A DNA stretch of 64,000 nt from a virus: the IMG/VR virus record IMGVR_UViG_3300044997_000902, positions 4,076 to 68,075 of that record, one strand, 5' to 3'. The position numbers and the translations under genes are program-made. The notes below the pieces were generated by a model that worked only from the letters and a program-made list of their open reading frames with translations, was not told the origin of the DNA and did no database searches. Positions 22,125 through 40,400 of this stretch are shown piece by piece (within the stretch, counting starts at the first letter, position 1; each line of letters starts with the position of its first letter).

Positions 22125-23827
22125 TCGAAAAGTCCTCCATCTTCAGAAATCATCTGTATAATATATTTACCTGTAGGTATATTATTTAAAGGAATAGATC
22201 CGCTCAATAAATCTTTATCTATAATTCTAAAAGATGTTTGAAATGTGCTTTTACTTTCTGGATAAATATTATCAGAATATTTGAAACGCACAAAACAACT
22301 ATCATATTGATATGGATTATCAATTAATATTGGTTTTTTGAAACTTTTTCCTTGGATCATTACATTAGTACCTCTATATCCGCTGTTAGGCAATACGGCT
22401 GAAGGAGAAGGAGTCTCTATAAAATTATTTTGTGAAATTTTTGATATTTGAGCGCTATTTATTAGTTTAATTTTTCCATTTATATAATAACTTGTCGATG
22501 GAAGTTCGAAAGATATTTTATTTTTATTGTATATTATTAAATTTGATAATGGAATCGATTCTTGAAAAGCGTTAGCATCTCCAGTTAGTAAATAAACTTT
22601 TTTATAATATGAAGAATTTCCATTATAAGTGAATGTAGATAAATTTATTCCTGTATTTGCAATTGTAAAATAATTTAAACGAAAATTTTTATTATTGCTT
22701 GCATTAGGGATATTTAATTCAAAATAATTTTTTTGCAAATTATATAAATTTACAGAAACGTAAGTTGTTCCAATATCAATTGCATTAATTTTTTCTATAC
22801 TTGAAAATATAAAAGGAGGATAAAGATTGCTGTCTACTCTATTAGTTGGATCAAGATAAATTGTTTGACTAGAGTAATTGGGAGTAACATCTACATAATT
22901 TCTTTCGAAAAATCCAGAATCAAATATGAATCCACTATTTTTAAATAAAAATACATTAACATCCGCATCATATTCAAGAGTATTATTTATGTTTATATTA
23001 AATGATCCCGTAGTCTTATTGCTTATATAACTATCATTGTAATTTAATCCTGTTTGAACAATGTTATAAAAGACCGCATAATCAGTGTCTGAATATTTAT
23101 AAGGCAAATCAATTGTATAAGTAGATGATCCAGATAATATTCCGGTTCTAAAAAATTGAAAACCAGAACTAATTATTCCTGATGTAGAAAAAAGATGATT
23201 TTCATAATATTTTTTATATAAATTTACAGGAACATCATATTTAACAGTTATTGATCTTCCGCTACTATAATTAAAATTATTTATATTTAATATTTTAAAA
23301 TTATTTATTTCGGACGCTAAATTAAAATTTTGAACTAAATTCACTTCTGCAATTCCACTCTTAGTAGACATAGGTATTGTAAATGTATTTGTTTCTCCAC
23401 TAAAATAATAATCTATATCATCTAGAACTGGTATTGCAGAAATGGCACCAGTTGTTATAGATGTTAAAACTTTTCCAGTAATATTTATTACATCTCCTTC
23501 GGAACCATTTTTAGGATCAAAATCCTCGAAAGTAAATATAGGTAAAAATGGTAAATTATTTTGACCTGTAATTTCAAAACTATTAGATGCTATAATTAAT
23601 TCTCCTGTATCTGGATTTGAAGGAACTACAAAATCCATTCTTTGTGTTCCGTTAATTAGCGCAAAATTTAAACTTTCTCCAGCAAAAAACAGCTTATCAA
23701 CATAATCTAGATCTTCACCATAAATTGATATAACTTGACCTAAGTCTCCTGTTGGGCTAGATGTAGAAGTAATCTTTGGGTTAGGAGGTATGTATTTAAA
23801 AAATTCTGTCGATACAATAAGTCCCAT
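22121..23827 (-). CDS. IPT/TIG-domain virion protein
   Basis: PKITS.SSP.G..G.VISIYG, FDP.NGS.GDVINITG, P.SGYRGTNVMIQG. Confidence 0.7.
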   Translation of the reverse strand: MGLIVSTEFFKYIPPNPKITSTSSPTGDLGQVISIYGEDLDYVDKLFFAGESLNFALINGTQRMDFVVPSNPDTGELIIASNSFEITGQNNLPFLPIFTFEDFDPKNGSEGDVINITGKVLTSITTGAISAIPVLDDIDYYFSGETNTFTIPMSTKSGIAEVNLVQNFNLASEINNFKILNINNFNYSSGRSITVKYDVPVNLYKKYYENHLFSTSGIISSGFQFFRTGILSGSSTYTIDLPYKYSDTDYAVFYNIVQTGLNYNDSYISNKTTGSFNININNTLEYDADVNVFLFKNSGFIFDSGFFERNYVDVTPNYSSQTIYLDPTNRVDSNLYPPFIFSSIEKINAIDIGTTYVSVNLYNLQKNYFELNIPNASNNKNFRLNYFTIANTGINLSTFTYNGNSSYYKKVYLLTGDANAFQESIPLSNLIIYNKNKISFELPSTSYYINGKIKLINSAQISKISQNNFIETPSPSAVLPNSGYRGTNVMIQGKSFKKPILIDNPYQYDSCFVRFKYSDNIYPESKSTFQTSFRIIDKDLLSGSIPLNNIPTGKYIIQMISEDGGLFE

Positions 23828-23832
23828 ATATT

Positions 23833-24804
23833 TTATGCTAAAGTTAGCATCCTTATTTGTTGATTAGTAGCGTTTTTGATACGAGGAACAGTCGCAGTAA
23901 TATAATTATTATTAGAAATAGTAAAATTATCCGCTTCATATTCTCCAAAAAAAACTTGAGCAACATATTGAAAATTATTTCCGGAGATCTGTATTTTATC
24001 TCTATAACGGCCAGACGTAGGAGAAAAACCAGAAATCGTAGCTTCTTCAATCACATTATATTGTTTTATAGTTAATTCATTTGTTAAAAATTCTTCTGCT
24101 CTAACTTGAAATGCTTTTTTCGTTAAAAATCCAGTTACGCCATAACCCTGAGTAATTAAAGAAGTTCCAAACGGAGCCGTACCTAATACAACACCGACTT
24201 TTGATCCAGATATTTCTACTAAAGGATTTAAATTATCACAAGTTATTGTTAAAGTAGTTTCTTTTGGACCAAAAACTCCTCTTCTCTCTTCTATATCTCC
24301 AATATATATTTCAGGTCGAATATCTGTTGTATAAGTATAATTTGCATTTAAATAAGATCCAGTTAAATTTTGATTGCTAAAGTTAGTAATGCTTATTTCA
24401 TTAATATGCACAACAGAATTTGAAAAATCAATATGATCATATGTCGGAATAAAATTTCCTGTTGGAGTTCTAAAAAATATAATTTCAGTTGTACAAATGA
24501 CTGGATTGTGTGGAGCAAATCTAGCATTATAGCTTTTAATATAGCCCAGTTCTTGAATACCTCCTAAATTAAAAGTAACGGCTTCGTCTAAATTTAATAG
24601 ATTTTTTATTGGATCTACACCAGTATAATAATAACTAAAACTCAAAGACCCTTGAATAGAATTATTAGGTCTAACTTCATCCGAATACCTCTGACCGATT
24701 TCTAAATATGGAGATATTTGAGCCTCATATGACATTTGAGCTTCGGATGCAATAATCGATTGATTATTTATTTGTAGATTTACATTTTTTCCATTGTAAA
24801 ACAT
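23833..24804 (-). CDS. Tail-tube-fold paralog with C-terminal IPT/TIG domain
   Basis: Two tube-like halves (MSYEAQISPYLEIG / YTYTTDIRPEIYIG), then ISGFSPTSG...IQISGNNF. Confidence 0.55.
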   Translation of the reverse strand: MFYNGKNVNLQINNQSIIASEAQMSYEAQISPYLEIGQRYSDEVRPNNSIQGSLSFSYYYTGVDPIKNLLNLDEAVTFNLGGIQELGYIKSYNARFAPHNPVICTTEIIFFRTPTGNFIPTYDHIDFSNSVVHINEISITNFSNQNLTGSYLNANYTYTTDIRPEIYIGDIEERRGVFGPKETTLTITCDNLNPLVEISGSKVGVVLGTAPFGTSLITQGYGVTGFLTKKAFQVRAEEFLTNELTIKQYNVIEEATISGFSPTSGRYRDKIQISGNNFQYVAQVFFGEYEADNFTISNNNYITATVPRIKNATNQQIRMLTLA

Positions 24805-24805
24805 A

Positions 24806-25636
24806 TTAGTAATATTGTACTATTGTTTTAGTCGCTCTTATTATATCATCCAGATTTGATTCTGTTGTAGAATTATTAATAAATGCGTCGGGCATTTCTA
24901 TTGTAAAGCTATTTGAATCTAAAAGTCCAGACATTTGTATTCTTAAAGGTATATTTTCTCCAGTATAAACTAATTTTGTAAATAGACTTTCTGTCATATT
25001 TACAGTTTCTTGAGCTCTAATAGGTTTAACCTCTACAGGAGTTTGCTGACCTAAAACATAAATTGGCGTTAAATTACAGCTAAATGTATATGTTAAATTA
25101 TATAAATCTGCAGTTAATTCGCTTGCGGTTCCTTTAGCAAATACATTTCTTCCAGAAATTAAATTTGTTTTTGAACTATGAGCAATGCTATCCGCAGAAG
25201 CGTTATTGGGATTAGTCAAATCTCTAGGAACAGGGAACAAAGAGTTCGTTATTATTGGTTCATAAGTTATATAACTGGCCTGAGCAGTAATTACATTATT
25301 AGGTTCTACTTTAAGGCTATAATTATTTAAATAACATTTCTGACCACTAACCCCTGCAAATCCTATATTAACACCATTATAGTTCTGAGGAGCAGAAATA
25401 AAATTTTTGATTTCTTTAACTGTATTAAAAGCTGGATCACCAGTTGGGTTTATTAAGTATGATATTTGAAATGTGCTTGAACTTGGTCCTGTAGTTATCT
25501 GTTTTTTAAATGGTTTTCTTTTGCCTAAAGTATAAACAGGCCCCATAGTTATATCTGAATTAAAACTTGCGGATATTGCTAATACCCCAGTATTATTGAT
25601 CCTCACCTCACATTGATCATAGTATATTCTAGACAT
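24806..25636 (-). CDS. Tail-tube-fold paralog
   Basis: Duplicated motif SASFNSDITMGPVYTLG / NLTYTFSCNLTPIYVLG, as in 53115-54218. Confidence 0.55.
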   Translation of the reverse strand: MSRIYYDQCEVRINNTGVLAISASFNSDITMGPVYTLGKRKPFKKQITTGPSSSTFQISYLINPTGDPAFNTVKEIKNFISAPQNYNGVNIGFAGVSGQKCYLNNYSLKVEPNNVITAQASYITYEPIITNSLFPVPRDLTNPNNASADSIAHSSKTNLISGRNVFAKGTASELTADLYNLTYTFSCNLTPIYVLGQQTPVEVKPIRAQETVNMTESLFTKLVYTGENIPLRIQMSGLLDSNSFTIEMPDAFINNSTTESNLDDIIRATKTIVQYY

Positions 25637-25660
25637 ATTCCTTATTCCTTTTTCCTATTA

Positions 25661-25670
25661 AAATTACACT
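25661..25670 (-). promoter_or_regulatory. Putative late promoter motif GTGTAAT
   Basis: AGTGTAATTT about 25 nt upstream of ATG 25636. Confidence 0.6.
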
Positions 25671-25671
25671 A

Positions 25672-26478
25672 TCATCTTGAGATAGTGCTTTCATAAGTTA
25701 ATTGCATTAGAGCGCTTCCGTCTACATCAGTATTGTAATCTTCTTTGACTAATAATGCATCAGTTATATTAAACGAATTGACTATAGTAGACGAATTATT
25801 TTTCTTTAAATTAATGTCAAAATTATATATATTTTCTTTAACGGGATAATCAAATAAGCTCTTATTTTTATAATCATGCAAAGATATTGAAAAGCTTGTT
25901 GTTATTGATATAGGATATTGGAGTTTAACATCTACGGGTTTTATAGAAGTTGCATCGAAAATAGGAAGCCTATTCGATCTAATAGTTATATTTAAATTAT
26001 TTATTTTCTCCGATTCTAATTCGCTAAAGTTAATTTCTATATCTCCAGGATTAACTATATTTAATTTACCCTCTTCCATAACGAATGGTAATTTTGAAGA
26101 TGAAGCATTACCAAAATCACTATAAAAGTTCCATTTTGTAGCTAGATTTGGTATTGTACCTACTCCGCATGAAAATTGATATTCTGCCAGGTAGCCACTA
26201 TTCATTACAAATGTATTTTTGTCGTATTGAATCTTCAAATTTGCTGCTTTTTCACCTGTATACTCTATAAATTGATCAGTATTAATAAATAAAGATTCCA
26301 AATTTAAAGCTCCCACGAACATTCCTATAGGCACTGTATTTAAATGATTATTATTACATCCTAGATATTTGACATTTTCTATTGGTAGATCATAACTGGC
26401 AGCAATAGATTGCGCCCCTGTGATAGGCACATCATTAATATAAATTCTATTGAATTCTCTTGTAAATCTAGATAACAT
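25672..26478 (-). CDS. Tail-tube-fold paralog
   Basis: QSIAASYDLP...LG, FSCGVGTIP, LNPGDI-like, NRLPI...QYPISITTSFSI parallel the major tail protein. Confidence 0.6.
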   Translation of the reverse strand: MLSRFTREFNRIYINDVPITGAQSIAASYDLPIENVKYLGCNNNHLNTVPIGMFVGALNLESLFINTDQFIEYTGEKAANLKIQYDKNTFVMNSGYLAEYQFSCGVGTIPNLATKWNFYSDFGNASSSKLPFVMEEGKLNIVNPGDIEINFSELESEKINNLNITIRSNRLPIFDATSIKPVDVKLQYPISITTSFSISLHDYKNKSLFDYPVKENIYNFDINLKKNNSSTIVNSFNITDALLVKEDYNTDVDGSALMQLTYESTISR

Positions 26479-27054: not shown

Positions 27055-27645
27055 ATGGGAATGGGTTTACCAAAAATTGATTTAAGACAAGAAGATACGG
27101 GATCTATTAATGATCCCATGGTTCAATGGGCAAATAAATCATTGGGGCATAATTTTTTAAAAAATGATATTGTAAAATATAAAGGATATTTTTGGTATTG
27201 CCTTAAAGATCATTTTAAAACCTCACAGAGCGAGCCAGATACAATTTCTGGAAATGAATATTGGGGAGGAATAATTACATTATCTAGTGATATAAGAATT
27301 ACAAAATTTGTTTGGATTCCTTCTTATACATCTACTATTCAGCATAAACCTAGCGTAACAACAATAAGATTTGGAAACGGATATGAACAAAGAATCGCTA
27401 AAAGTATTAATCCAGATTTAAAAACTCTTCAATTAAACTTTGATCAGAGGACTTCTCGAGAAGCTAGAGCAATTATACATTTTTTAAAACAAAGAGCCGG
27501 AGTACAAGCTTTCGCTTATAATCCTGGAGATATTTATTCTGAACAAACATATAGAACAAAATATGTTTGCAGAGAATGGGAAACTAATTTTACATTTAAA
27601 GAAAACTATTCTGTTCGAGCAAAACTTGAAGAAGTTTCTGCATAA
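27055..27645 (+). CDS. Minor tail protein, lambda gpM-like, with N-terminal CBM5/12-like module
   Basis: F.W.P...P.V...RFGNGYEQR...INP, AIIHFL, A..EEV; DIVKYKG.FWYCLKDH....P...YW. Confidence 0.85.
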   Translation: MGMGLPKIDLRQEDTGSINDPMVQWANKSLGHNFLKNDIVKYKGYFWYCLKDHFKTSQSEPDTISGNEYWGGIITLSSDIRITKFVWIPSYTSTIQHKPSVTTIRFGNGYEQRIAKSINPDLKTLQLNFDQRTSREARAIIHFLKQRAGVQAFAYNPGDIYSEQTYRTKYVCREWETNFTFKENYSVRAKLEEVSA

Positions 27646-27669: not shown

Positions 27670-29979
27670 ATGGGAATGGGATCAAGTCCTAATCAAGTTG
27701 TACAGGCTAGCGAATACTTTCTTCAAGCCCTTGAAGCTCAAAGATCTATTAATTCTCATATCCATGAGATTGAGCCTACAACCCCTATATTTTTATATGA
27801 AATAGATTTAAATGAAATTAAACCTGCGACGATCTTATACCCAAATAGAAATGGCCCAGTTAAAGATGGTGTGATAAGAATTCATAATGATTTTAATCTT
27901 TTTCATATTAATAGAGGAATTATAAAATGGAGAGGAAATCTTTACTTTCCATTTCCTGTCTATGGAGATCAATTTGATATAACTTCTAATGGAACAATTC
28001 CAACTCCGAAAGTAAAATTTTCTAGTCAGTTTTTAGATGATGAATTTAATTCTTTTTATAAATATATAAGAATGCAGATTCAAGAGCTGAAAGATATAGT
28101 CGGCTCAAAAGTTACAAGAAGAAAAACTTTTGTTAGATATCTAAGTCCAGACAATTTTCCAGCGGCAGTAAATCCATTTAATACTTTCTCAGATACTCCA
28201 TGGGCGTCAAGAGATGGAGAAGTATTAACTGTGAGATCTTTAGAGAGATTACCAATAGGATTCTCCAAATGGTTAATTTACGGAGTAAAGCCTATACAGA
28301 CTTCTAATAAGGTTTTTACATGTTTAAGAACAGACGATAGGTTAAAAACTTTAGAAATTAATCTTCAAAAGTATAATTATCATTTAAATTCTTTAGACTT
28401 TTTCAATCTATTTGTAAATGAAGATATAAATCTAACTGACGATGTAATAGATGTGTTTTCTTCTGATGTTTTCATTATTCCTGCGAATAATACGTATACT
28501 AGCATAATTCCTAATGTTGAAAAAGAATTTAAAAAAATAAATTCAAATTCAACGATAAAAGCTTTATGTTATTTTAATTCTATATCTTTTAATAATACAT
28601 CTAGTTCTACTATAAATTATCCCGTTACATTTTCTGAAGATGGCTCTAAATTAGTTACGTTTATTTCTTTAAAATCAAATAATGAAACCATAGCAGAAAG
28701 ATTTAATTATTCTATATCTACCCAAACATCCACTAGTTTTAGTGCAGCTTTTTCTAAACCTTTAAATAATAATTTTGAAATTAATTATTTAACAATTCCA
28801 AGCGGGAATTATACTGGAATTAATCCGTATTCAAATGAGAATACAAAACTGGTTGCATTAAAATTAAATCCTAATTTTGGCGTATCTACCTCTGGAGAAT
28901 ATAACATCATTTTTCCCACAATATTCTCTAATACTCCAAAAATATTATTTAATAGTTGGGGAAGCGCGGGATTCTTGTATAATCAATATTTAAAAGATAT
29001 TAGTTCTAGCGGTTGTACATTTGTTGCAACTCATACGGGCAATAATGTTGCATTACAAACTCAAAATATTCATTTAATTGCAACGGATTATATAACAGAA
29101 GAATTAACTATCTCAAATACAACTCAAATATATACTTCATATCAAAATATGGCAAGAGATTATTTAGATCAAATTAATCAAAAGAAGATTGATATTTATG
29201 AAGTAGAATTAACGCCAGATATATATTACATTGATCGGAAAGTTCAAGAAGACTCTCAAAATGTTGTTTATGAGTTAGCTTCATTATTGGATATAGAAGG
29301 AGTTAAATTACCAGGAAGAATCCTTCTATCTAAAAATTGCCCATTTACATATCGAGGTGAAGGGTGTGTATATGAGAGGCATGATAGATTAAATGAAATG
29401 CATTCTGGGGTATATGGGATAGTTAATTCTGTGATAAATCCAAATAGTACAGCGGGATCAGATGGAGTATCAAGAGTTAGCGTTTCTTTATCTCAATCAT
29501 GCAGAGGATTGCGAAGTGCTCCGCCGGTAGCAAATGGTTCTGATTCAACTTTTACCCAATATAGACAAGGCAACTGGATTGATAGAGATGCTTGGCAACA
29601 AGGAGTAAATTATGCATATGGAAATTATATTCATATAGAAAAAAATAAAATAAAATATTATTTTGTATGCAAACAAAATCATACGGCAGATTTAATAAAT
29701 TCTCCTCCAAATTTCGAGTATTGGGAATCAGATACATGTTCTAAAACTCTAATTGGATGTAGACTAAGATGGAAAGATAATATAAATTTTGAAACAAAAA
29801 CCTTAGCGATAAATCATATGTTTGGACCAAATGAAAGTATCCCTGATACTTTATTAAAATTTCAAATCAGAGCTCCATTAGCTGCCGACGGTACTCAATT
29901 AGTTGGAGTTTTGCCATTTGGTGGATTTCCATCTGTAGAAGGGAAATTCCAATCTCAGCGAAGCATGGAAGGACCATAA
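27670..29979 (+). CDS. Minor tail protein, lambda gpL-like, with large inserts
   Basis: LYEIDL, VGSKVTRRKTF.RYL, YYIDRK, YELAS.LD, CPF.YRGEGC.Y, DTCSK...GC.LR, LPFGGFP. Confidence 0.9.
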   Translation: MGMGSSPNQVVQASEYFLQALEAQRSINSHIHEIEPTTPIFLYEIDLNEIKPATILYPNRNGPVKDGVIRIHNDFNLFHINRGIIKWRGNLYFPFPVYGDQFDITSNGTIPTPKVKFSSQFLDDEFNSFYKYIRMQIQELKDIVGSKVTRRKTFVRYLSPDNFPAAVNPFNTFSDTPWASRDGEVLTVRSLERLPIGFSKWLIYGVKPIQTSNKVFTCLRTDDRLKTLEINLQKYNYHLNSLDFFNLFVNEDINLTDDVIDVFSSDVFIIPANNTYTSIIPNVEKEFKKINSNSTIKALCYFNSISFNNTSSSTINYPVTFSEDGSKLVTFISLKSNNETIAERFNYSISTQTSTSFSAAFSKPLNNNFEINYLTIPSGNYTGINPYSNENTKLVALKLNPNFGVSTSGEYNIIFPTIFSNTPKILFNSWGSAGFLYNQYLKDISSSGCTFVATHTGNNVALQTQNIHLIATDYITEELTISNTTQIYTSYQNMARDYLDQINQKKIDIYEVELTPDIYYIDRKVQEDSQNVVYELASLLDIEGVKLPGRILLSKNCPFTYRGEGCVYERHDRLNEMHSGVYGIVNSVINPNSTAGSDGVSRVSVSLSQSCRGLRSAPPVANGSDSTFTQYRQGNWIDRDAWQQGVNYAYGNYIHIEKNKIKYYFVCKQNHTADLINSPPNFEYWESDTCSKTLIGCRLRWKDNINFETKTLAINHMFGPNESIPDTLLKFQIRAPLAADGTQLVGVLPFGGFPSVEGKFQSQRSMEGP

Positions 29980-29983
29980 ATGT

Positions 29984-30730
29984 ATGGAGTTTAACCCCCA
30001 AATTAAAAATTACATTAAAGATCTTGCAATTAGAAAAGCTCATGAAGAAATCTGTGGGTTTATATACTTCAAATCTAAAGAATATAAATTTGATATATAT
30101 CCATGCAAGAATAGAGCAGAAAATAGAAGTAATAATTTTATAATATCTCCACAAGATTATTTGAATTGTTCAAATTTAGGTAAAATTATTGCTTGTTATC
30201 ATTCACACGTTAATGAAAGTGTTGATTTTAGTGAGATTGATAAAAATAATAGCAATGTTTATAATATTCATTATATATTATATAATGTAAAATATAATAT
30301 GTTCAACTTCTACTCTCCAAATAAAGAAAGTAATCCATATATAGGAAGACCATTTGTCTTGGGCAAGTCAGATTGTTTTACATTAATGCAAGAATATGCA
30401 TTAAAAGAGGAAAAGGTTAAAATTAATTTTCCTCGAGATTTAATTTATCCAAGACATTTAGAAGATATAAAAGATTTATACGAAATTAATTTCAAAAATC
30501 AAGGTTTTATCAAATTAGATAAATCAGTAAAATTGAATAAATCAGACGGAATTATGATGATGTTTCCTGGAGTTTCAGATAAATTCCCTACGCATGCGGC
30601 AGTATATATAGGAGATGGATTGATCTTGCATCAGCCTTTTAATTCTTTTTCTTGTGTAAATATATATGATAACTTCTTCAAGAAACATACTAGTTATGTT
30701 TTGAGGTATAAGGAGCGCATGAATGGTTAA
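29984..30730 (+). CDS. Tail assembly protein, lambda gpK-like (JAB/MPN + NlpC/P60)
   Basis: EEICG, HSH-x7-S-x2-D; GRPF..G..DCFTL, HAAVY.G.G.ILH. Confidence 0.92.
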   Translation: MEFNPQIKNYIKDLAIRKAHEEICGFIYFKSKEYKFDIYPCKNRAENRSNNFIISPQDYLNCSNLGKIIACYHSHVNESVDFSEIDKNNSNVYNIHYILYNVKYNMFNFYSPNKESNPYIGRPFVLGKSDCFTLMQEYALKEEKVKINFPRDLIYPRHLEDIKDLYEINFKNQGFIKLDKSVKLNKSDGIMMMFPGVSDKFPTHAAVYIGDGLILHQPFNSFSCVNIYDNFFKKHTSYVLRYKERMNG

Positions 30731-32039
30731 AGTTAAATTACATGGATATTTAGGTCAAGAGATTGGCGAAGAATGGGATTTAAATGTCTCTAGCGTTGCA
30801 GAAGCTTTTCGAGCTATAGAAGCTAACACAAAAAAGCTAACAAAACTTTTTATAGATCAATCTGAAAAGAATGCAAAATATGAAATATTAATTAATCATA
30901 GACCTTTGTGGGTTCCTAAAGCGGAAGAAATGCCTCTCAATTATAAAGACGTTAATAAAAAACATTTTGCAAGATTATCTGAGTCTGAAATGTTTATGGA
31001 TTTTGGATCAACGTTAAAAACTATTGATATTATCCCTATCGTAGAAGGTGCGGGTGGAGGAGGCGGTGGTGGTGCGCAAGGATGTTTTCCAGCTGGAACA
31101 AAAATTTCCACACCCCAAGGTGAAAAAAATATAGAAGACCTAAAAGAAGGAGACGAAATATATTCTTTTGATAAAGATAAAAATATACAAATTGACATAA
31201 TTGAGAAAGTTTTTGAACATGAAAATAATAAAATTTTAAAAATTACGTTATGGGATGGATCAGTAATTAGAAGCACAGGAAATCACTGGTTTTTTAATGA
31301 GTATAATAGATTTACTCCTCTTGAAAATTTTCAAGTTGGAGATGTTCTAATTCATAAAAGTGGAGACGTAATGCCTATTGAAAGAATAGAAGAAGATGGA
31401 AATGAAAAAGTTTATAATTTTCATGTGATGAAAAATCATACATACATAGCTAGTAATATTTTTGTGCATAATGGAGGAGGAGGAAAACAAGGTGGAGGAG
31501 CTAAAGGAGGAGGCGGTGGAAGTGGATTTAAAAGTGTTTTCGCGGTATTCCTAGCTATAATTTTAGCTCCAGTTTCTGGTGGAGGTTCATTAGGTATATT
31601 AGGCATGTTAGCTCCAGCCATTTTAGGATTAGTAGCTTTAGGAGTTTCTATGCTGTTAATGAAACCACCACCTATGGTTAGCCCGCAACAAATAGCGAAT
31701 CCTTCAGCAGATTTCGAAGCTTCTCCAGATACTGGAGGAGGAGAACCATCTTACACTTTTAATGGTCCAGTAAATACAATTGGAGAGGGAGGACCAGTAC
31801 CAATAGGTTATGGCAGATTAATCATAGGTAGTCAACAAATTTTTAGTTCGTATGATCAAATATACAGAATTCAATCAAGAGCAAATAAATATGAAAGCGA
31901 TGGAAAAGCTCCAATTGGCGCAGGAGCATCAGAAAAAAATTATCCTACAAAAAGTTTTTATTTTACTCATCACGGATATCCCATAAATATTCAAGATATT
32001 CAAGGGAATTCAATGAGCGATAACTCATTATCAATTTAA
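30723..32039 (+). CDS. Tail assembly protein, lambda gpI-like (ubiquitin-like N-domain), containing a Hint domain
   Basis: VKLHGYLG...SVAEA.RAI...IIPIVEGAG; C-terminal SYTFNGPVNT..EG.PVPIGYGRLIIGS. Confidence 0.9.
   Translation: MVKVKLHGYLGQEIGEEWDLNVSSVAEAFRAIEANTKKLTKLFIDQSEKNAKYEILINHRPLWVPKAEEMPLNYKDVNKKHFARLSESEMFMDFGSTLKTIDIIPIVEGAGGGGGGGAQGCFPAGTKISTPQGEKNIEDLKEGDEIYSFDKDKNIQIDIIEKVFEHENNKILKITLWDGSVIRSTGNHWFFNEYNRFTPLENFQVGDVLIHKSGDVMPIERIEEDGNEKVYNFHVMKNHTYIASNIFVHNGGGGKQGGGAKGGGGGSGFKSVFAVFLAIILAPVSGGGSLGILGMLAPAILGLVALGVSMLLMKPPPMVSPQQIANPSADFEASPDTGGGEPSYTFNGPVNTIGEGGPVPIGYGRLIIGSQQIFSSYDQIYRIQSRANKYESDGKAPIGAGASEKNYPTKSFYFTHHGYPINIQDIQGNSMSDNSLSI
31083..31472 (+). other. Hint (intein-like/BIL) domain, 130 aa, +1 residue Gly
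   Basis: CFPAGT, TGNH (block B), VYNF.V...HTY, FVHN followed by G; no endonuclease. Confidence 0.9.
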
Positions 32040-32042
32040 TTT

Positions 32043-35000
32043 ATGGCAAAAAAATGTAAAGATTGTGATCCAAATAAATATATCGAAGGAGTTTCCTGGA
32101 GAGGAAAAAATGGTATTTCTTATGATGGATATACAGTTTATAATGATGTAGGCAAACCTAGTTCAACAGATATAACTTTAGCAGATGTGTCAGATTTAGT
32201 AGATGCATATAATCCAATATTTTCTGCAAGCACAACTTACCCTAATCCTTTACCAGAATCATCTAATAATCAAATTAATATAGACGGAGTTGATAGAGGA
32301 AATGGATTTTGGTTTGTATGGAGTCTTGTGAATGGATTAGTCATGTATGGCACTCCTGGCGTAAATCCAACTCCTTCAGCTATTTTAAGTTCTGCAACAA
32401 CAACAGCCAAGTACGGATCTGCTTTTTCTTTTAATGTCGAATTAGAACAAGTGGTATCATCATTAAATTATACTGATTTTGGAATTTTAGCAGATTTAAA
32501 TTCTAGTGATAGGTTGAGATTCGTAGGAACAAATAGTACGATTATAGAATTTAAAAAAAATTTAATTAACTATGTTGGATATTATACGGGTATTATTGAA
32601 TCCATATTAAATGGGAATAGATATATAAGCGTAGGCAGTGGTAAAAATAAAACAACTCGATTAGAAACGTTTAAAGCTTTTAAAAGTTTAACAATAAAAA
32701 GCAAGGATCAATATGGGAATGATCCTATATATGTAAATAGTGCACCAACAGTTCATGCATTTAGAGGGCAAGCTTTTGGCTATAGTTTAACTACTAATTT
32801 GCCTAGTAATCAGTATAGCGCTAGTTTAGATGCAAACTCTTTAAATATCTTACAAAATTTAGGATTAGTATGGAATCCGAATACTAAAACTATTACTGGA
32901 ACAGTAGCTCTTAATGTCGAAGCAGATATAAAAACTTCAACTTTAAGTTTTATAATCTATGGTCCAAATTCAGACGCAGGAAATAGAAAAAATTTTAATT
33001 TATCTATACTATATGGCGAGCAGAAGACCACAGATGTTTTACCAACTATATCTGCTAAAACTTATAGTGGTACGGTAGGAACTGCAATTGGAAATCAAAC
33101 TTTAGCCGGACTAAATAATAAACATACTATTTTAGCTGTCTCTTCTTTACCTGAAGGTTTAGTTTTTAATTCTACTAGTAAAACTATTACAGGAATTCCA
33201 AGGCATGCGGGTACATTTTACGCTTACGCAAGCTGTTCTAACGCTAAAGGATCTAGTTCAAAAGTCACATTAACATTTAATTTTAATCCGTATACTAAAG
33301 ATAATAGACCTACAGGGGCGAATAGTTATCCAAGTCGATTAAATTTGCCTTCCTGGAATTTTGATATTATTAAAAACAATAAAATTATTTTAAATTTAAG
33401 AAGCGCTGGAGATGAAATTTTAAGCTTTAAAAAAATAAGCATAAATGAATTTGAGACCATAAGAAAAAATGGAAAACCAGACGGAATTACAAATATTGGT
33501 GGATCTATACCAGATACTACTTTTTCTCCTGGGCAAGGAGTAGAATCTGAAAGTTGCTTCTGGCTTAACATTGATGATCCAACCGCTGCAAACGCAAGGG
33601 CAAGAAGAGTCTCTGGAGTTTTAATACAACCAGAATTTAGCATATCAATCTTAGGAAACTATGCTATAAGATACGCTTCTGTAAATCAAGTAGATCTTCT
33701 TGGAAATGTTTGCTATACTCCAGATGCTAACTCTAGTGGTCCAGCTTCTACTCCTTTTGTAGAGAATCTAACAGTCATAGCAACAAGTACGGTCAAAAAC
33801 TCTATTAGCGCTAATCAAGCTGAAAATGTTCCAACAATAACTATTAGTCCAACACAAATAGAGCATCAAGTTATCTTTACAGGAGGCTCTTTAGAAACGA
33901 GTTCCCCAACAGCAACAACACGATTATCAAAAAGTAATCTTTTGAAGTATCCAAATGGCATTCCCAATAGAAATGGGACATATCCATTTTATGTACAAAT
34001 GGCAGATACTTGCGCATTTAATTTAAGATCAGATAGATTTAGTATGTTCATAGGCACATATACAACAAGAGCTGGAGATGTGTATACATGCACTTATTCA
34101 AGTACATGCTTTCCAGCTGGAACAAAAATTTATACTCCTTATGGATTAAAAAATATAGAAGAGTTAAAACAGTCTGATGAAGTGTATGGTTACGATGATA
34201 AAACTCAAGATTTAAAAATTTCTAAAATATCAGAAATTTTTGATGAAGGTCAAGATCTTGAACCTATAACTAAAGTGACTTTAGAAGATGGATCACAAAT
34301 AAGATGTACAAAATGTCACCCGTTTTTAACTGATAATAATGAATATAAGCTTCTTTTAGATATAAAAGTTGGGGAGCATTTGTATACATTCAACAAAAAG
34401 AAATTAAAAATATTAAAGATGGAGCACGACGGTTTTGAAAAAGTATATAATTTTGAAGTAGAGAAATATCATAATTATATTGCAGAAGGAATTTTTGTTC
34501 ATAATAGATATGGTGGCGTCAGAAAAGGGACAAGAACATGGAACGATAATTATACATTACCAAGCTCTTCGATTCCAAGGAATTGTCACACTTTAGTAAG
34601 TAGAGTGGGAGATAGACAACAAATAGATCGGTATGGTTTTAGATATGGAAATACGTTAAAAGATACAAAAGATATAGGCATAACTTCTTTAACAAATATA
34701 TCTTTGTTAGACGTTCTTGGAGAAGGTCCTATCGAAGGTATTGTAGATTATGAAATAGTCCCTAATCCAGGAGCAACAATAGGAGATATAGGTTATAAAA
34801 ATGGAGTTAAAATAATTAAATATCAAGGACCAGATTCTTTATTAAGATCTGTATATTGGAATGAGATACCTATAGCAGATAATACTTATCCAGCTAAGGG
34901 AAGTTTAAATTTTGAATTTATTAGACTCGCATATGATTATGGTGATTCAGCCCCAAGACATACAAGACTAAATGAATTAAAAAATATAAAATTAGAAGAA

Positions 35001-37436
35001 CCATTCTACGCAAGAAAAGTAAACAATGGGCAATATCTTGATACGGTGTCTTTATATGATGAAAATGCAAATACTTTATTATCTAAAATAAAAATGCCCA
35101 GAAGGTTAACTAGTACGAAAATTGTTGGAACAAGACTTTTTGGTAGAAGAAAATTCCAAGATGGAAGTTCTAGAACTTATAAAAAATCTTTAACAATTCT
35201 TACTAAAGATTTATATGGTTTAAGACTCCATCTAAAAGCTTTAAGTTTATTTAAAAGTATTGTTGATCTAACCATTTGGGAAAGCGCCGATGATGCTTCA
35301 AAAAATTCAGTCAGCGGTAGAATGGATCGACAGGAAATGACTTTTTATCTTTATTTAAAAAGAATAGATTATATTCCAAATGTAGGAAAACAAGTCACAT
35401 TAATCCCTAATCCAAATTATACAGGAAGTTCATCAGGAGCATTTACAATAAGCGAAGAAGAATATTATAATACAGTTTTTAGTAAAGAATATGATGTTTT
35501 GGGTTTATTCTGGCCCCCTGATAGTCCTGGAGGTGGATCTGGTCCAGACGGATATAAAAGAAAACCAGCAAACTTTACTGAATTCATAAATGGAAGAACA
35601 ACTTATTCTCATAGACATGATGGTAAGATATATACAACATACGCTAACGATGTTAATAAGTTGCAACGTGATTTTCGAGCTTCTTTACAAGATTATAAAG
35701 ATAAAAGACAAAGACTATTAGTAGGAGAAGCTAGAGATTACGCTACGTTAACAATCGCAGGTAAATTAAATCAAGGACCTTATATCGAAACATTTGAATG
35801 GACAGGTTTAAATAGATACACAAGATCAACAACTGTTGGATGGGAGATAGAAATTGAGCCTGTTTATGATGAAAGCGTTGATCCAAATATAGTAGTAAGA
35901 AGTGCAATAGATTCTATTACTGAAATTTACGATGATTTTCTTGTTTTACCCCATACAGCTGGAATTTTAACCACTTTTGATTCTAGGTATTTTACTAGTA
36001 TACCACAAAGAGCCTATGACACAAGATTGTTAAAAGTAAAAATCCCCAGTAATTATAATCCTTATTCTAGAACTTATGATGGTATTTGGGATGGAAATTT
36101 TAATTTAGGATGGACAGATAATCCTGCTTGGTGTTTTTATGATTTAATTACTAATAGAAGATATGGATTAGGAAAATATGTAGATCCAAACCTAACAGAT
36201 AAATGGACTTTATATGAAATTTCAAAATATTGTGATCAATTAGTCAGTTCGGGAGGAACAGGAGATGGAAAAGAGCCAAGATTTACTTGTAATGTACTCA
36301 TTAGCACCAGAGAAGACGCTTATAAAGTTGTTAATGATATGGCAAGTATTTTTAGAGCAATAGTTTTCTATAATGCCGGATTAATATTTACTTCTCAAGA
36401 TAGACCAAAAGATCCATTGTATATATTTAATAATAGTAATGTAAAGGATGGAGAATTTACATATAGTAATACTAGTAAAAGAGTTAGAAGAAATGTAGCG
36501 TTAGTCAGATATAATGATAAAGAGAATTTTTATAAACCTGCAGTAAAATATGTAGAGAGTAGAGAAGGGCTAATTAGATTTGGGATAAAAGAAATTGAAG
36601 TTAGTGCCTTTGGATGCACAAGCGAAGGTCAGGCTGAAAGATTAGGGAAATGGACTTTGTTATCAGAGAATCTAGAATCAGAATTAGTTACTTTTGAAAC
36701 GAGTTTACCCGCGATGTATTTGAAGCCTGGAGATATAGTTTTTATACAAGACCAGAATAGGCAAAATAAAATTTTAGGAGGAAGAACATACGTATTAAAT
36801 AAAAATTATGCAATTTTAGATATTAAGTACGAAGATATATCTGGATTTTTACAAGCTATAAACGGATGTAATTTTAACGTATTAACTCCAGCAGGAAATA
36901 TTGAGATAGGAACAGAAACAGGAAATGCGGTCTTAGAATTTTCTGCAGATAATAATAGCCCATTTACCGTAGCAAAGCCAGATGGACAAAAGACATTGGT
37001 TTCAGGGTTAGACACGTCTTTAATAAGAAAAAAGCAGATTCAAACAATAAAATTTGAATCAAATTACTCGATTCTTGATCCAACTGACACAAATGTTTTT
37101 GGTAATTATGTGACGATAGAAACTACTGGTAATTTTGAGGGATATACCAAGATTGATTTTGGAGGTCAATCTTTAGACGATACAGAGCATACGTTAATGC
37201 AAAATACAGTTTGGACTATAGAAATAGAACCAGAGAATTACGATTATAATAAAAGTCCAAGTGTTTCTGGAATTAGCGATCCAGGAGTTAAATATCCAGG
37301 AGCGTCATTAGAACCTTATATGGATAAAACACAGAAATTTAGAATCTTAGATATTGAGGAGCAAGAAGAATATAGATATAAAATAACTGCCTTGCAATAT
37401 GATGAAACTAAATATAATTTAGGAGACAATGTTTAA
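32043..37436 (+). CDS. Central tail fibre/tip protein, lambda gpJ-like, with N-terminal Ig-like extension and Hint domain
   Basis: DVLGEGPIEG, KVKIPSNY...Y.G.WDG.F...WTDNPAWCFYDL, LYEISKYCDQLV, EPRFTCN, FGCTSEGQA.RLGKW, LKPGD. Confidence 0.93.
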   Translation: MAKKCKDCDPNKYIEGVSWRGKNGISYDGYTVYNDVGKPSSTDITLADVSDLVDAYNPIFSASTTYPNPLPESSNNQINIDGVDRGNGFWFVWSLVNGLVMYGTPGVNPTPSAILSSATTTAKYGSAFSFNVELEQVVSSLNYTDFGILADLNSSDRLRFVGTNSTIIEFKKNLINYVGYYTGIIESILNGNRYISVGSGKNKTTRLETFKAFKSLTIKSKDQYGNDPIYVNSAPTVHAFRGQAFGYSLTTNLPSNQYSASLDANSLNILQNLGLVWNPNTKTITGTVALNVEADIKTSTLSFIIYGPNSDAGNRKNFNLSILYGEQKTTDVLPTISAKTYSGTVGTAIGNQTLAGLNNKHTILAVSSLPEGLVFNSTSKTITGIPRHAGTFYAYASCSNAKGSSSKVTLTFNFNPYTKDNRPTGANSYPSRLNLPSWNFDIIKNNKIILNLRSAGDEILSFKKISINEFETIRKNGKPDGITNIGGSIPDTTFSPGQGVESESCFWLNIDDPTAANARARRVSGVLIQPEFSISILGNYAIRYASVNQVDLLGNVCYTPDANSSGPASTPFVENLTVIATSTVKNSISANQAENVPTITISPTQIEHQVIFTGGSLETSSPTATTRLSKSNLLKYPNGIPNRNGTYPFYVQMADTCAFNLRSDRFSMFIGTYTTRAGDVYTCTYSSTCFPAGTKIYTPYGLKNIEELKQSDEVYGYDDKTQDLKISKISEIFDEGQDLEPITKVTLEDGSQIRCTKCHPFLTDNNEYKLLLDIKVGEHLYTFNKKKLKILKMEHDGFEKVYNFEVEKYHNYIAEGIFVHNRYGGVRKGTRTWNDNYTLPSSSIPRNCHTLVSRVGDRQQIDRYGFRYGNTLKDTKDIGITSLTNISLLDVLGEGPIEGIVDYEIVPNPGATIGDIGYKNGVKIIKYQGPDSLLRSVYWNEIPIADNTYPAKGSLNFEFIRLAYDYGDSAPRHTRLNELKNIKLEEPFYARKVNNGQYLDTVSLYDENANTLLSKIKMPRRLTSTKIVGTRLFGRRKFQDGSSRTYKKSLTILTKDLYGLRLHLKALSLFKSIVDLTIWESADDASKNSVSGRMDRQEMTFYLYLKRIDYIPNVGKQVTLIPNPNYTGSSSGAFTISEEEYYNTVFSKEYDVLGLFWPPDSPGGGSGPDGYKRKPANFTEFINGRTTYSHRHDGKIYTTYANDVNKLQRDFRASLQDYKDKRQRLLVGEARDYATLTIAGKLNQGPYIETFEWTGLNRYTRSTTVGWEIEIEPVYDESVDPNIVVRSAIDSITEIYDDFLVLPHTAGILTTFDSRYFTSIPQRAYDTRLLKVKIPSNYNPYSRTYDGIWDGNFNLGWTDNPAWCFYDLITNRRYGLGKYVDPNLTDKWTLYEISKYCDQLVSSGGTGDGKEPRFTCNVLISTREDAYKVVNDMASIFRAIVFYNAGLIFTSQDRPKDPLYIFNNSNVKDGEFTYSNTSKRVRRNVALVRYNDKENFYKPAVKYVESREGLIRFGIKEIEVSAFGCTSEGQAERLGKWTLLSENLESELVTFETSLPAMYLKPGDIVFIQDQNRQNKILGGRTYVLNKNYAILDIKYEDISGFLQAINGCNFNVLTPAGNIEIGTETGNAVLEFSADNNSPFTVAKPDGQKTLVSGLDTSLIRKKQIQTIKFESNYSILDPTDTNVFGNYVTIETTGNFEGYTKIDFGGQSLDDTEHTLMQNTVWTIEIEPENYDYNKSPSVSGISDPGVKYPGASLEPYMDKTQKFRILDIEEQEEYRYKITALQYDETKYNLGDNV
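34107..34505 (+). other. Hint (intein-like/BIL) domain, 133 aa, +1 residue Arg
   Basis: CFPAGT, TKCHPF, VYNFEV..YHNY, FVHN followed by R. Confidence 0.9.
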
Positions 37437-40400
37437 ATGAGTAATCCAACAACATTACCTTCTACAGAGATAGATATAATTAATATCACAAAAAATACTC
37501 AAGGCTTTAAGATCAGGATAAACCCAATTAATAATATAGAAAATATAGAAACATATAATCTATATCTTAGTGATTATACTTATAATCTCGAGCCAAATAG
37601 TAATCCAGTCAACTTTTTAATAAAAGAGTTGCCTGTTTTAGAAACGGATCAGTATTTCTACTATATTCCTAAAAATACAGGCATGCACTATTTAACTATT
37701 TTTTCTAAAAATAATATGGGATTAGAATCTTCTGGAATTCTATTTACCGGAATAATTCCTTATCAAAATTTAATAAAAGAAGTTAGTCTAGAGAATTTAA
37801 ATTATTATACTAGTGGATATATGCGATTATGCGATAATGCTAGCACAATCACTTTAAATGAACCTTATGCTTTATTAGGATATCAGTTGAATTACTCTTC
37901 TGCAACAACTCAAGATTATATCAATAATCAAGGTTTTTTATATAAAGATTTTGCCCCGTATTTCAAAAATAAATATACAAGAATATATAACAGAGTAATC
38001 CCAGCCATAGATAATAATAGCGGTATCCTTTTTGATCAAACTATATTAAGAAATTCATCAAATGATATTTATGCAATTCAATCAGTTGGCAACTCTGTAA
38101 ATAAAGATTTTTCTGTAAATGAAAGTATTTCTATTTCTGATGTAAATATAGTTCGTTCTCCAGAATATTCATCGATATCTTCTGATAATAATAGATATTT
38201 TATTTTTGATTATAGTAGTAATTATAGTGCATTTTTAACTTCTAATACAAAATATATCCAAGGTACTTCAGATGAAAATACAATATTGTTTAATCCAGAC
38301 ATGGATACGACAGGTTCATTTTTTAATAAAATATTAAATTTAACTGGAACTACTGGAGAAATACCAACTAATTATGTCAGAATAAGTGAGCCAGGGCATT
38401 ATAATTCATATTATATAACTAGCGAGGCGATTGACGAAGATGGTTTTTCTTCTGCTGGTGGAAATATAAATAAAAAGGATGATCCAGAAAGGTATACAAA
38501 TCAAGATGGGTATAGAATAGTTAAAATACAACATAATACAATATCTAGAGATCATGTTAGTAAAATGTTTAAAAATTATAAAAGAGTGGATGAGAATAAA
38601 ATCACTTTTGATATAAAAGGAGATTTATTACCTGTTGATATTGGCCTAGAAGCTATAGTAATTATTCCTCAAAAATACGAACAAAACATCAATATTAAAC
38701 AAAATAAAGTTTATTCTGATGATTTTATATTCTTAAAAAATCTAGATAAGTTAGAAAACAATACAGAGAAAAATTACTCTGTTGAATTAATCGATTCTCA
38801 AACTGAAACGAAATACCGAATAACAACATATTTAAATCCAGATAGTCCTTTATTAAGAGATAACATTTTCTCTGCAAGAATATATTACTTAAACGCTTTA
38901 CAGTCATATTCATTGTATGCTTATCTTAGCGAAATAGGATTTACAAATGAAGGTTTAGAATATTATATTCAAAATACAGAATTAATTAGTAAATATATTA
39001 CTTTAAATAAATTTATAAAAGATACAAAAAATTATACTTCTATAATTGCGGCAAGTTATCAAGGTTTAGTTTACTTTTTTACTCCAGAAAGTCTTCCTTA
39101 TATAGCTTGGCCTAATCAAAATTATAGAGATCTCTATCTTAAAAAAGGTGGTGCAAGAATGTTAGATTTTGAATACGATGGATTAGCTTCTGGACCAGAA
39201 TTTTTTGATTATTTTCCATTATCGAATGCTCAAGAAAATAATAACTTTTTGCTTGGAGATAAATATAAAACTACTTATAGATGTTTAGATTCTTATAAAT
39301 ATATAAGTAATGCAAGCTATGCGTTTTTAACTCCAGAAGATGTGCCAAGCTCTGGTATTTATGGCAGTGAAAGTTATCTTGGGGTTTATGATCCTGGTAA
39401 TATTGGAGATGCACAATCTCCAAATACTGCTGATTTTAAAAGCGTAAATTATGATTTAAATTATTTTAAAGCCAAAAATATATTAGCAGTTAAATTTATT
39501 CGTGCAGGAATCCAAAAAGATGATGCTTATGCAATAATAGAATTTATATTAGATATACCAGATGCAGAAGACTTTATTATACAAGGGATATCTGGAACAG
39601 ATACAATATTAGAAAAAGGTATAAAAGAAATAAATGGAGTAAATTATCATTATTTTGTAGCAAAATTTGTATCTTCTTGCGGTGTAGATACAGATCCAGT
39701 TTTAGATGGAGTAATAATAGATCAAAAAAATATCGTTGATTCAAAAAAAATGATATCATTTTTAGTCTATCCTACTAAATTTAAACTTGTTGAAGATCCA
39801 GATGATGTTCCTTTCTTTGGAGATATTTATCTCTTAGCCACGAATTTAGATAATAATCAATTTAGCATATTAAAAGAATGTCCATATACGATATTAAATA
39901 ATAACATGGATTGCACTAAAGGCTGCTGCGTTCAAGATATTAATCCAATAACTCTTAGAGCACCATATAAACAATTTTATATATTGTCTAAATTTATAGC
40001 TAATCAAACAGAAAATAACTATCCTTTTGGTAAAATAGATGGAACTACAAATTACGTTCTAGGATCTGCAGCATGGAGATATAAAGTTTTAGATTATAGC
40101 GAATCAGTTCATCAAATAAAATATAAGAAACCAACAATATCAACTAATAGATTTAGTTTTGGAATAGTATGCTATCCCGAGCATAATGTTGGATTAGATA
40201 AAATATTAATTTATATGAAAAATATTTATAATATAAATGATATTACATGGAAAGGCTCAGATTTAATTGATTCTTACACTTTTGATGATATTGTTAAAAC
40301 ATATCCAATCTACTTATCTATACCTGATTTTTCATTCTCTAAAAAAGGAACACAATTATTCGAAAAAATAGCTAACGATTATAATTCTTGGATTAAGAAT

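Follow-up and report, generated by a model that had tools for sequence, protein, structure and literature searches.

We analysed a stretch of DNA of 64,000 nucleotides from an uncultured phage (hereafter the window), positions 4,076 to 68,075 of the 68,075-base IMG/VR virus record IMGVR_UViG_3300044997_000902 (CheckV completeness 44%). The + strand of the window carries a lambda-type tail-tip module with the gene order gpM-like, gpL-like, gpK, gpI and gpJ. Within this module the tail assembly protein gpI (30723..32039, + strand, 438 amino acids, phrog_32) contains a Hint domain with the features of a type A bacterial intein-like (BIL) domain, inserted between an N-terminal ubiquitin-like (Ubl) domain and the C-terminal part of the protein. 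A second Hint is present in the tip attachment protein gpJ, whose gene starts at position 32043. Our analysis suggests that the gpI Hint is probably a mobile and dispensable BIL element that excises itself from its host protein, mainly by cleavage. An earlier note, made from the letters of this DNA alone, had described the layout of Ubl, poly-Gly and Hint in gpI, and Pfam, PHROGs, the junctions and a beta-grasp model all confirmed it. The note was also right about a Hint that begins with Cys and ends in His-Asn, has Gly at position +1 and carries no homing endonuclease (C121, H249-N250 and G251, within 130 residues). The Hint of gpJ (34107-34505) was absent from it.

Protein I, its Hint and the neighbouring protease

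gpI matched the PHROGs family phrog_32 'tail assembly protein' (E 5.3e-24) in two stretches separated by the Hint, and a profile of 95 homologues matched the lambda tail tip assembly protein I (8iyk_I, E 1.5e-18) and the solved homologues 25vf_9 and 9l9p_A. All parts of the protein are encoded on the + strand. Residues 1-106 (30723..31040) make up the ubiquitin-like beta-grasp domain (phrog_32, 8iyk_I; predicted local distance difference test, pLDDT, 68-91 in the AlphaFold 2, AF2, model). The Ubl tail and a poly-Gly N-flank, VEGAGGGGGGGAQG, follow as residues 107-120 (31041..31082), the last of which is the -1 Gly. The type A BIL/Hint itself spans residues 121-250 (31083..31472; C121, T185-x-x-H188, H249-N250; PF07591, 2lwy_A). 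Behind it come a Gly/Lys C-flank, GGGGKQGGGAKGGGGGSG, with Gly at +1 and Lys at +5 (residues 251-268, 31473..31526), two hydrophobic helices that are the counterparts of H1 and H2 of lambda gpI (residues 269-313, 31527..31661), and a C-terminal plug/strand part (residues 314-438 and the stop codon, 31662..32039; 25vf_9, 9l9p_A, 8iyk_I). The alignment of homologues revealed an invariant block in the C-terminal part, KPPP...SY.F.GP.NT.GEGGP.P.GYG. In the AF2 model (Hint pLDDT 81-96, overall predicted template modelling score 0.39, linkers disordered) the helices cover residues 274-281 and 290-311 and align to the membrane-helix region of solved gpI homologues, and no second Ubl follows the Hint.

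Residues 1-110 of the whole-gpI model aligned in VIA with a MoaD-related protein, CysO, SAMP1, MoaD and Urm1 at Z scores of 7.0-5.8. When the Ubl was modelled on its own (pLDDT 77), the best Foldseek rows were MoaD, CysO and SAMP at E values from 4.8e-3 to 0.1, with no row at E 1e-3 or better. With these middling scores, the N-terminal domain is predicted to fold as a beta-grasp of the ThiS/MoaD type. G109 in the Ubl tail was unchanged in 72 of 72 sequences. Helices H1 and H2 have been reported for lambda gpI (PMC11101478), and the lambda virion tip contains three gpI copies visible only from about residue 101 or 134 on; the N-terminal domain is never seen in lambda virions (PMC11101478, PMC12617516). 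Because that domain is unseen in lambda, the Hint of the window appears to be placed exactly between the part of gpI that is retained in the virion and the part that is absent from it.

The junctions of the Hint read GGGGGAQG/CFPAGT and IFVHN/GGGGKQGGGA, with Gly120 at -1, Cys121 as residue 1 and Gly251 at +1. PT-HINT (PF07591) was the top-scoring Pfam family (42.3 bits, cut-off 27.7, residues 128-247) and Hint_2 also passed (29.6 bits, cut-off 28.4); Intein_splicing (31 vs 35.8 bits) and the hedgehog Hint family PF01079 (21.8 vs 29.7 bits) stayed below their cut-offs. Its 130 residues and the lack of a match to an endonuclease family make it a mini Hint. Among solved chains, the top sequence match was the 'bacterial intein-like domain' of Clostridium thermocellum (2lwy_A, E 4.6e-12), and the best intein match was gp41-1 (E 9.2e-8). 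Foldseek also ranked 2lwy first (TMt 0.86, root-mean-square deviation 1.7 Å, 32% identity), followed by BIL2 of the BUBL1 locus (TMt 0.77-0.79) and then by mini-inteins, with hedgehog far lower. In VIA-align 2lwy and the NpuDnaB intein tied at Z 20.6 and BIL2 reached Z 19.7. We classify the domain as a type A BIL because it has the terminal His-Asn and no nucleophile at +1; the note's reference to A-type BILs, with their HN ending and variable +1 residue, agrees with both the sequence features and the best solved match.

The gpI Hint holds all residues for an N-S acyl shift at Gly120/Cys121 (Cys1 and the block B T-x-x-H) and the His-Asn for Asn cyclisation at Asn250/Gly251. It lacks the +1 nucleophile (Cys, Ser or Thr) on which intein-type transesterification depends, and the C-extein has no such residue until +17. 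C121, T185, H188, H249 and N250 are invariant in all 21 gpI homologues with a Hint, the most distant of which share 54% identity, and so are the -1 Gly, the Gly residues at +1, +2 and +4 and the Lys at +5, with Gly at +3 in 19 of the 21. A survey of the +1 residue in gpI homologues had been proposed, and the junction alignment gave Gly in 23 of 23 gpI rows, C121 being equally constant (23/23). The median pairwise dN/dS (ratio of nonsynonymous to synonymous substitution rates) of 16 distinct genes was lower for the Hint (0.095) than for the Ubl (0.149) and the C-terminal part (0.152). We rejected a recent foreign origin of the Hints of gpI and gpJ, whose GC content at third codon positions (0.14-0.16) is close to that of the flanking parts (0.16-0.21).

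The gene upstream of gpI, with which it overlaps by 8 nt, encodes gpK (29984..30730, + strand, 248 amino acids), a JAB/JAMM metalloprotease joined to an NlpC/P60 peptidase (phrog_30, E 7.3e-57). Prok-JAB (PF14464) matched residues 15-106 with 30.8 bits (cut-off 25) and NlpC/P60 (PF00877) matched residues 121-240 with 26 bits (cut-off 23), and a comparison of gpK with PDB sequences gave no match at E values up to 0.1. The JAMM motif HSHVNESVDFSEID starts at residue 73. The pattern H[ST]Hx7SxxD was found in gpK at 24 of 24 loci, whether the gpI Hint was present or not, and the NlpC/P60 residues C131, H204 and H216 were unchanged in all 19 distinct gpK sequences, as expected from the claim that gpK keeps both sets of catalytic residues. 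The idea that the Hint replaces the JAB protease was rejected, the JAMM motif being intact at these 24 loci and at six further loci of a distant gpI clade (P0132) with gpK on the contig.

We modelled gpK with a zinc ion and gpI residues 1-120. The predicted complex scored 0.78 (0.78, 0.69 and 0.79 in individual runs), with contacts agreeing to at least 77% and a partner pLDDT of at least 75, and the best of three controls scored 0.00. In the benchmark, the score mark was passed by 58 of 80 solved complexes and by 2 of 110 mismatched pairs, counts that are only approximate here because our own alignments and a riding zinc ion were used. The modelled interface places gpI residues 104-113 (tail IPIVEGAGGG) against gpK residues E22, H73, H75, S83, D86 and others. 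Iyer et al. (2006) described a ThiS/MoaD-like Ubl, a Gly-rich linker and a C-terminal domain in tail assembly protein I and predicted that the JAB domain of protein K frees the Ubl at its last glycine (PMC1779556). The proposal that gpI and gpK form a Ubl/JAB pair matches that work, and the modelled complex, with the Ubl tail in the JAMM site, is consistent with such a cut. Should the model hold, JAB would cut the tail within residues 109-113, which is 8 to 12 residues ahead of the Hint Cys.

Hints in protein J and among relatives

gpJ (32043..37436, + strand) belongs to phrog_31, 'central tail fiber J' (E 3.3e-121), and all three of its parts lie on the + strand. An N-terminal extension with an Ig-like domain (residues 1-688, 32043..34106; weak match to He_PIG), which is a separate open reading frame at two related loci, L006 and L012, precedes the second BIL/Hint (residues 689-821, 34107..34505; -1 Thr, +1 Arg) and the tip attachment protein J core (residues 822-1797, 34506..37436; PF13550 with 66.4 bits, phrog_31). 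This Hint passed the cut-off of Intein_splicing (PF14890, 45.4 bits, cut-off 35.8), matched PF07591 with 32.8 bits and shares 46% identity with the gpI Hint (E 1e-32). Its +1 residue was non-nucleophilic in 14 of 14 rows (Arg in five, Met in two and Gly in seven). The possibility that it is a recent copy of the gpI Hint was considered and is probably wrong, the Hint tree grouping the gpJ Hints together with a support of 91 in the Shimodaira-Hasegawa-like approximate likelihood ratio test (SH-aLRT); this and all other trees are quick searches with SH-aLRT support only.

At the gpJ junction, the window and 24 other loci showed a Hint in 15 cases, a direct fusion in seven and two separate genes in two, the contig ending earlier in the remaining one; such locus counts are not counts of independent events because several loci are near-identical contigs. 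The direct fusions without Hint (L004, L007-L011 and L014) join through a variable linker of 10-50 residues. The splits in L006 (7890-7975) and L012 (11340-11420) consist of stop codons, a Shine-Dalgarno-like AAGG and a new ATG that starts a protein with M-G-Y. At L021 and L022, the residues after the gpJ Hint also begin with M-G-Y. In a tree of the gpK-plus-gpI exteins, the Hint-less gpJ forms make up a grade nested between Hint-bearing lineages. One locus, L026, has a Hint in gpJ and none in gpI, and seven loci show the opposite. From this opposition and the nested Hint-less gpJ forms, we conclude that the Hints of gpI and gpJ were gained or lost independently. The insertion sites are a low-complexity linker in gpI and a hypervariable junction in gpJ, yet both hosts are conserved phage tail proteins.

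Hints are sporadic among the relatives of gpI. The best 120 database matches included 117 gpI-like proteins, 28 of them with a Hint, and among the best 150 cluster representatives from a search of 1.8 billion proteins, 35 were gpI-like and two of these had a Hint. In the nearest Hint-less relatives (P0030-P0034) an uninterrupted Gly/Lys linker of 22-28 residues takes the place of the two flanks, which in Hint-bearing gpI sum to 24-37 residues. The length of the linker was considered as a means to tell splicing from cleavage and was rejected as not discriminating. An extein-only tree of 31 rows requires at least three changes of the Hint state, and the Hint-bearing P0029 clusters with the Hint-less P0032-P0034 (SH-aLRT 99). 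The Hint tree contains three lineages of gpI Hints: the window type (SH-aLRT 98); the Hints of P0025, P0028 and P0029, which group with N-terminal Hints of another phage's gpJ (SH-aLRT 100) and represent, as P0025/26/28/29, a second lineage at the same site; and those of the distant P0132 clade, which group with cellular tandem Hints (SH-aLRT 96). The P0132 clade has its Hint at the same Ubl/helix junction, with Lys at +1 and a membrane helix immediately after; its JAMM motif is intact and its gpJ lacks a Hint. Three Hint lineages at one gpI site suggest that this site was colonised three times.

This distribution does not favour the interpretation of the element as a 'domesticated' autoprocessing device, which the earlier note had proposed. 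The survey of Hint presence that it suggested found the sporadic distribution that it had itself set against domestication: the Hint comes and goes in close relatives with at least three state changes, several lineages occupy one site, the gpI and gpJ Hints behave independently, and gpJ alleles that are 95% identical differ in the Hint (see below).

A sporadic, intein-like distribution and a clean insertion relative to Hint-less relatives are also what would be expected of a passive mini-intein. In this case, the C-junction would be cut and the alpha-amine of Gly251 would attack the thioester at Gly120, restoring a gpI of 308 residues, and gpK would later process the continuous poly-Gly protein as in Hint-less phages. 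This mechanism has been proposed for splicing by type A BILs (PMC4031507). The Gly at both -1 and +1 in nearly every copy speaks for it as well, and selection on the catalytic residues fits an element obliged to make its host protein whole again. We nevertheless judge this explanation unlikely. Cleavage is said to dominate in BILs (PMC7664689, PMC4031507), none of the three kinds of insertion site needs ligation, and a further class of gpJ Hints, described next, would be served poorly by splicing.

To place these domains, we used a hidden Markov model of the Hints and obtained 254 full-length domains in 146 of 265 proteins. Residue 1 is Cys in 253 of these domains, 246 end in His-Asn and 193 have Gly at -1, and the +1 residue is Lys in 142, Gly in 74 and Ala in 16, with Cys, Ser or Thr in only eight. 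The eight Hint-like domains without the terminal His-Asn are all that could be cited for an inert Hint, that is, a non-processing spacer, surface or lumen domain that is retained in gpI, and nothing specific supports it. The invariant catalytic residues and the dN/dS of 0.095 argue against such a role. Moreover, lambda gpI just past the linker sits inside the tail-tip cone (PMC11101478), where three added domains of 130 residues would be hard to fit. We therefore regard an inert Hint as highly improbable.

A rough motif test sorted the 115 Hint representatives without a gpI part into 34 gpJ proteins with one or two N-terminal Hints, 38 proteins with at least three tandem Hints, 42 others and one protein with an internal Hint. 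P0122, P0124-P0126, P0128, P0130 and others have arrays of three to five tandem Hints with spacers of 2-5 residues (HN/KG/CF, HN/KGGG/CF). These arrays follow a signal-peptide-like start and mostly have Lys at +1, and a Tim44-like domain comes after the array in P0122 and P0128, the two proteins scanned against Pfam. P0123, P0127 and P0141 are gpJ proteins with two tandem N-terminal Hints, each between oligo-Gly flanks; P0123 had no relative in the viral contigs.

A scan of the viral contigs with an alignment of the N-terminal gpJ Hints found at least 600 stretches, at least 550 of which were confirmed. The same alignment (A3) gave two clear matches in species genomes, both in metagenome-assembled genomes (MAGs; a Betaproteobacteria bacterium MAG and a Pseudomonadales bacterium MAG), and seven weak ones. 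In the 80 loci that we kept (L033-L112), the genes are ordered gpK, gpI without Hint, gpJ. Here the Hint is preceded by a leader of 4-18 residues and by no Ubl. Cys1 and the terminal His-Asn are present in all 80 domains and the -1 Gly in 79, and the +1 residue is Ala in 74, Gly in five and Thr in one. When the gpJ core of one such locus was used as a query, 57 of its 80 closest relatives (67-100% identity) were Hint-less, 20 had the Hint and three were cut by the contig end; among these relatives (L130-L208) are alleles 95% identical to the Hint-bearing query that lack the Hint. The Hint-less alleles begin with M-T-x-S-K-Y-I-A-G-A-G-G-G...K. The Hint-bearing alleles have the same motif in the leader and repeat it past the Hint (A-G-L-G-x-R-I-A-G-A-G-G-G...K). 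Among 65 distinct gpJ N-termini, the motif is in identical register in 22 and at most three residues off in 56. The recurring leader motif is I-x-G-[AS]-G-G-G, and a shorter form, [IV]-x-G-[AS]-G, closes the Ubl of the adjoining gpI. Since the motif is repeated after the Hint, a cut at the C-terminal junction would free a gpJ with a native-like N-terminus, and splicing would give a duplicated, non-native start, which argues against a passive mini-intein at this site.

No relative of the window gpI was found when its alignment (A1) was searched against the species genomes. A tblastn search of the Hint against 50,697 GenBank phage records returned 24 records, none of them in gpI or gpJ. The matches were inteins of helicases or portal proteins and, in three Ruminococcus phages, hypothetical proteins; the Ruminococcus locus was dropped from further consideration, as its labels read only 'hypothetical protein'.

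Predicted excision of the Hint and fate of the fragments

The sequence features reported above make it likely that the gpI insert is an active, self-excising type A BIL. In BILs of this type, an N-terminal thioester is formed, the C-terminal Asn is cyclised and the outcome is mostly cleavage (PMC4031507, PMC7664689, PMC7765530); BILs are stated to 'produce predominantly cleaved products' (PMC7664689), and ligation is possible through attack of the freed amine on the thioester (PMC4031507). By analogy, after translation the Hint would form a thioester at the Gly120-Cys121 junction, and cyclisation of Asn250 would cut the C-junction, so that the Hint would leave gpI. The main products would be two fragments, the Ubl ending in oligo-Gly and the virion part with helices and plug starting with GGGGK. 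These are the pieces that would be expected from a cut of the Ubl tail by the gpK JAB in Hint-less relatives.

Whether the productive outcome is cleavage rather than ligation is close to an even call, and we lean on it with corresponding caution. We think that cleavage is the main outcome because, at all three kinds of site, the virion requires the part behind the Hint and a free N-terminus is natural there. These are the position in gpI just past the JAB cut of the model, the beginning of gpJ, and the gpJ junction that is split into two genes in some relatives. The element may be tolerated because it is inserted where a new N-terminus is natural, in gpI, in its gpJ paralogue and in the N-terminal gpJ class.

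Several points weigh against this reading. The sequence of the Hint-less relatives is what a clean splice would leave, splicing by attack of a freed amino group on the thioester has been reported for type A BILs (PMC4031507), and the Gly residues on either side of the Hint, at -1 and +1, offer an ideal steric setting for splicing by aminolysis. In Tetrahymena, a BIL flanked by Ubl domains generates an isopeptide between Ubl and Lys (PMC8616854), and the +5 Lys is invariant in Hint-bearing gpI. Purifying selection and three colonisations of one site could mean benefit rather than tolerance, and an early cleavage at the N-junction would be harmful if the Ubl is needed in cis until assembly. The pass of the gpK-gpI complex may mean likeness only, because JAB-Ubl complexes of other families have been solved. 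Finally, the excision chemistry of the gpI Hint is a prediction from its residues.

The Lys residues raise the alternative that the module performs an E1-independent, ATP-free conjugation of the Ubl. The BIL would make a thioester at the Gly of the Ubl tail and pass it to the epsilon-amine of a lysine; the acceptor could be Lys255 (+5) of gpI, or a lysine or the N-terminus of another tail-tip protein, and the JAMM isopeptidase of gpK would remove the Ubl again during tail-tip assembly. Tetrahymena BIL2, which links ubl4 to other proteins through a Lys-epsilon isopeptide and needs no ATP (PMC8616854), is the second-best structural match to the gpI Hint (Z 19.7), and in gpI, too, the Ubl stands directly N-terminal to the Hint. 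The +5 Lys is found in 21 of 21 sequences, the third gpI lineage has Lys at +1, Lys is the commonest +1 residue of the wider family (142 of 254), and the intact gpK JAMM site is modelled on the Ubl tail. Against these points, the Hint is dispensable and missing from close relatives, and the JAB protease is equally intact with or without it. Hint-less relatives share the Lys-rich linker, so that the +5 Lys occurs independently of the Hint. In tail genes, the N-extein of most Hints of this family is only 4-18 residues long and includes no Ubl, and in the model no second Ubl or known acceptor follows the Hint. Conjugation thus seems a poor prospect, behind even the restoration of gpI by splicing, and a mobile BIL element that leaves gpI mainly by cleavage remains the explanation that we prefer.

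Genomic setting, known systems and significance

The genes further upstream in the module, both on the + strand, encode a gpM-like minor tail protein (27055..27645; PF05939, 71.5 bits) and a gpL-like tail-tip protein of 769 amino acids (27670..29979; PF05100, E 2e-25 in two stretches; phrog_18). In the gpL homologue (27670-29979), the two stretches matched by the Phage_tail_L profile are about 350 residues apart, suggesting a large insert in a normally small protein. Six large open reading frames of 1833, 568, 323, 276, 268 and 1018 amino acids flank the module (16623-26478 on the - strand and 37437-40493 on the + strand). None of the six matched a PHROG family at E 1e-5. A Pfam scan that took in three of them found no family for the 1833- and 1018-residue products at E 1e-3 and none for the 268-residue product at E 1e-2. 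A tape-measure protein of 3388 residues (40490-50656, - strand; PF10145, E 8.2e-30) is encoded convergently with the gpM-gpJ module. With the rule of thumb of 1.5 Å tail length per residue, its length would correspond to a tail of about half a micrometre. The GC content of the window is about 0.30 except in a single GC-rich stretch (0.48), which harbours the gene of an RCC1-repeat protein of 1050 residues (59898-63050, - strand; PF00415 in 19 stretches).

The gpI Hint resembles the type A BIL of C. thermocellum (2lwy) in Cys1, the block B T-x-x-H, the blocks VYNF..HTY..VHN with the terminal His-Asn, and the lack of both a +1 nucleophile and an endonuclease. BILs are known from variable regions of bacterial, often secreted, proteins (PMC7765530). 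Unlike the BILs described so far, those reported here reside in the conserved phage tail-tip proteins I and J, between oligo-Gly flanks and at sites that several lineages have re-used. The comparison with ciliate BUBL proteins, also drawn before, was apt in that BUBL1 BIL2 of Tetrahymena thermophila (6y75, 6tmm) is the second-best structural match and shares with gpI the Ubl right before the BIL, the close fold and a lysine near the C-junction. BUBL1 BIL2 lies between two Ubl domains and makes a Ubl-Lys isopeptide, whereas the C-extein of gpI is a Gly/Lys linker with membrane helices, its Ubl belongs to the ThiS/MoaD type, the adjacent gene encodes a JAB protease and the Hint is dispensable among relatives.

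With class 1 mini-inteins (gp41-1, NpuDnaB), the gpI Hint has in common the fold (Z 19.8-20.6), the clean in-frame insertion and the sporadic presence. It differs from them in lacking a homing endonuclease and, in all gpI and gpJ junction copies compared, a Cys, Ser or Thr at +1; the insertions, moreover, lie within a low-complexity linker or at the end of a protein and not in a conserved active site. The Gly/Cys-Phe N-junction, which is typical of hedgehog autoprocessing, is shared with the Hog domain of hedgehog; a sterol-recognition region is absent and PF01079 scored below its cut-off. PF07591 as the best Pfam family recalls the PT-HINT domains of polymorphic toxins, but the gpI C-terminal part follows instead of a toxin domain. 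As in lambda, the genes are ordered K-I-J, and in gpI a Ubl ending in a conserved Gly is joined through a Gly-rich linker to two hydrophobic helices and the conserved C-terminal part; the difference from lambda-type gpI is the presence of the Hint.

BIL domains, the gpI/gpK Ubl/JAB pair and ciliate Ubl-BIL fusions were already known. A search of openly licensed PMC papers and bioRxiv, with subscription papers outside its scope, found no paper describing a Hint or BIL in gpI or gpJ. As far as these searches show, three aspects are apparently undescribed: BIL-type Hints that are recurrent and polymorphic in the lambda-type tail-tip proteins I and J, the targeting of the gpI Ubl/helix junction by several Hint lineages, and an N-terminal gpJ class that carries a copy of the native N-terminal motif. 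The lack of any example in 50,697 deposited phage genomes means that the class has been hidden from bench work.

Lambda-type tail-tip proteins I and J emerge from our analysis as a new home of BIL-type Hints and a very common one, with at least 550 confirmed stretches. Small Hints with Gly on both sides and a predicted product that starts with oligo-Gly may also be useful in practice for ligating proteins and removing tags. The Ubl-BIL-JAB trio in one operon provides a compact system for the question of thioester-based Ubl transfer in viruses. If conjugation were true, the trio would represent a virus-encoded equivalent of BUBL in Tetrahymena. It would act around the central tail fibre, the protein neighbourhood at which the bacterial Bil defence also directs a Ubl. 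The sites of the element mark where gpI and gpJ tolerate breaks, which bears on whether the gpK JAB cuts off the gpI Ubl, and the Hint-bearing tail-tip proteins offer a direct means of testing how these tail proteins mature.

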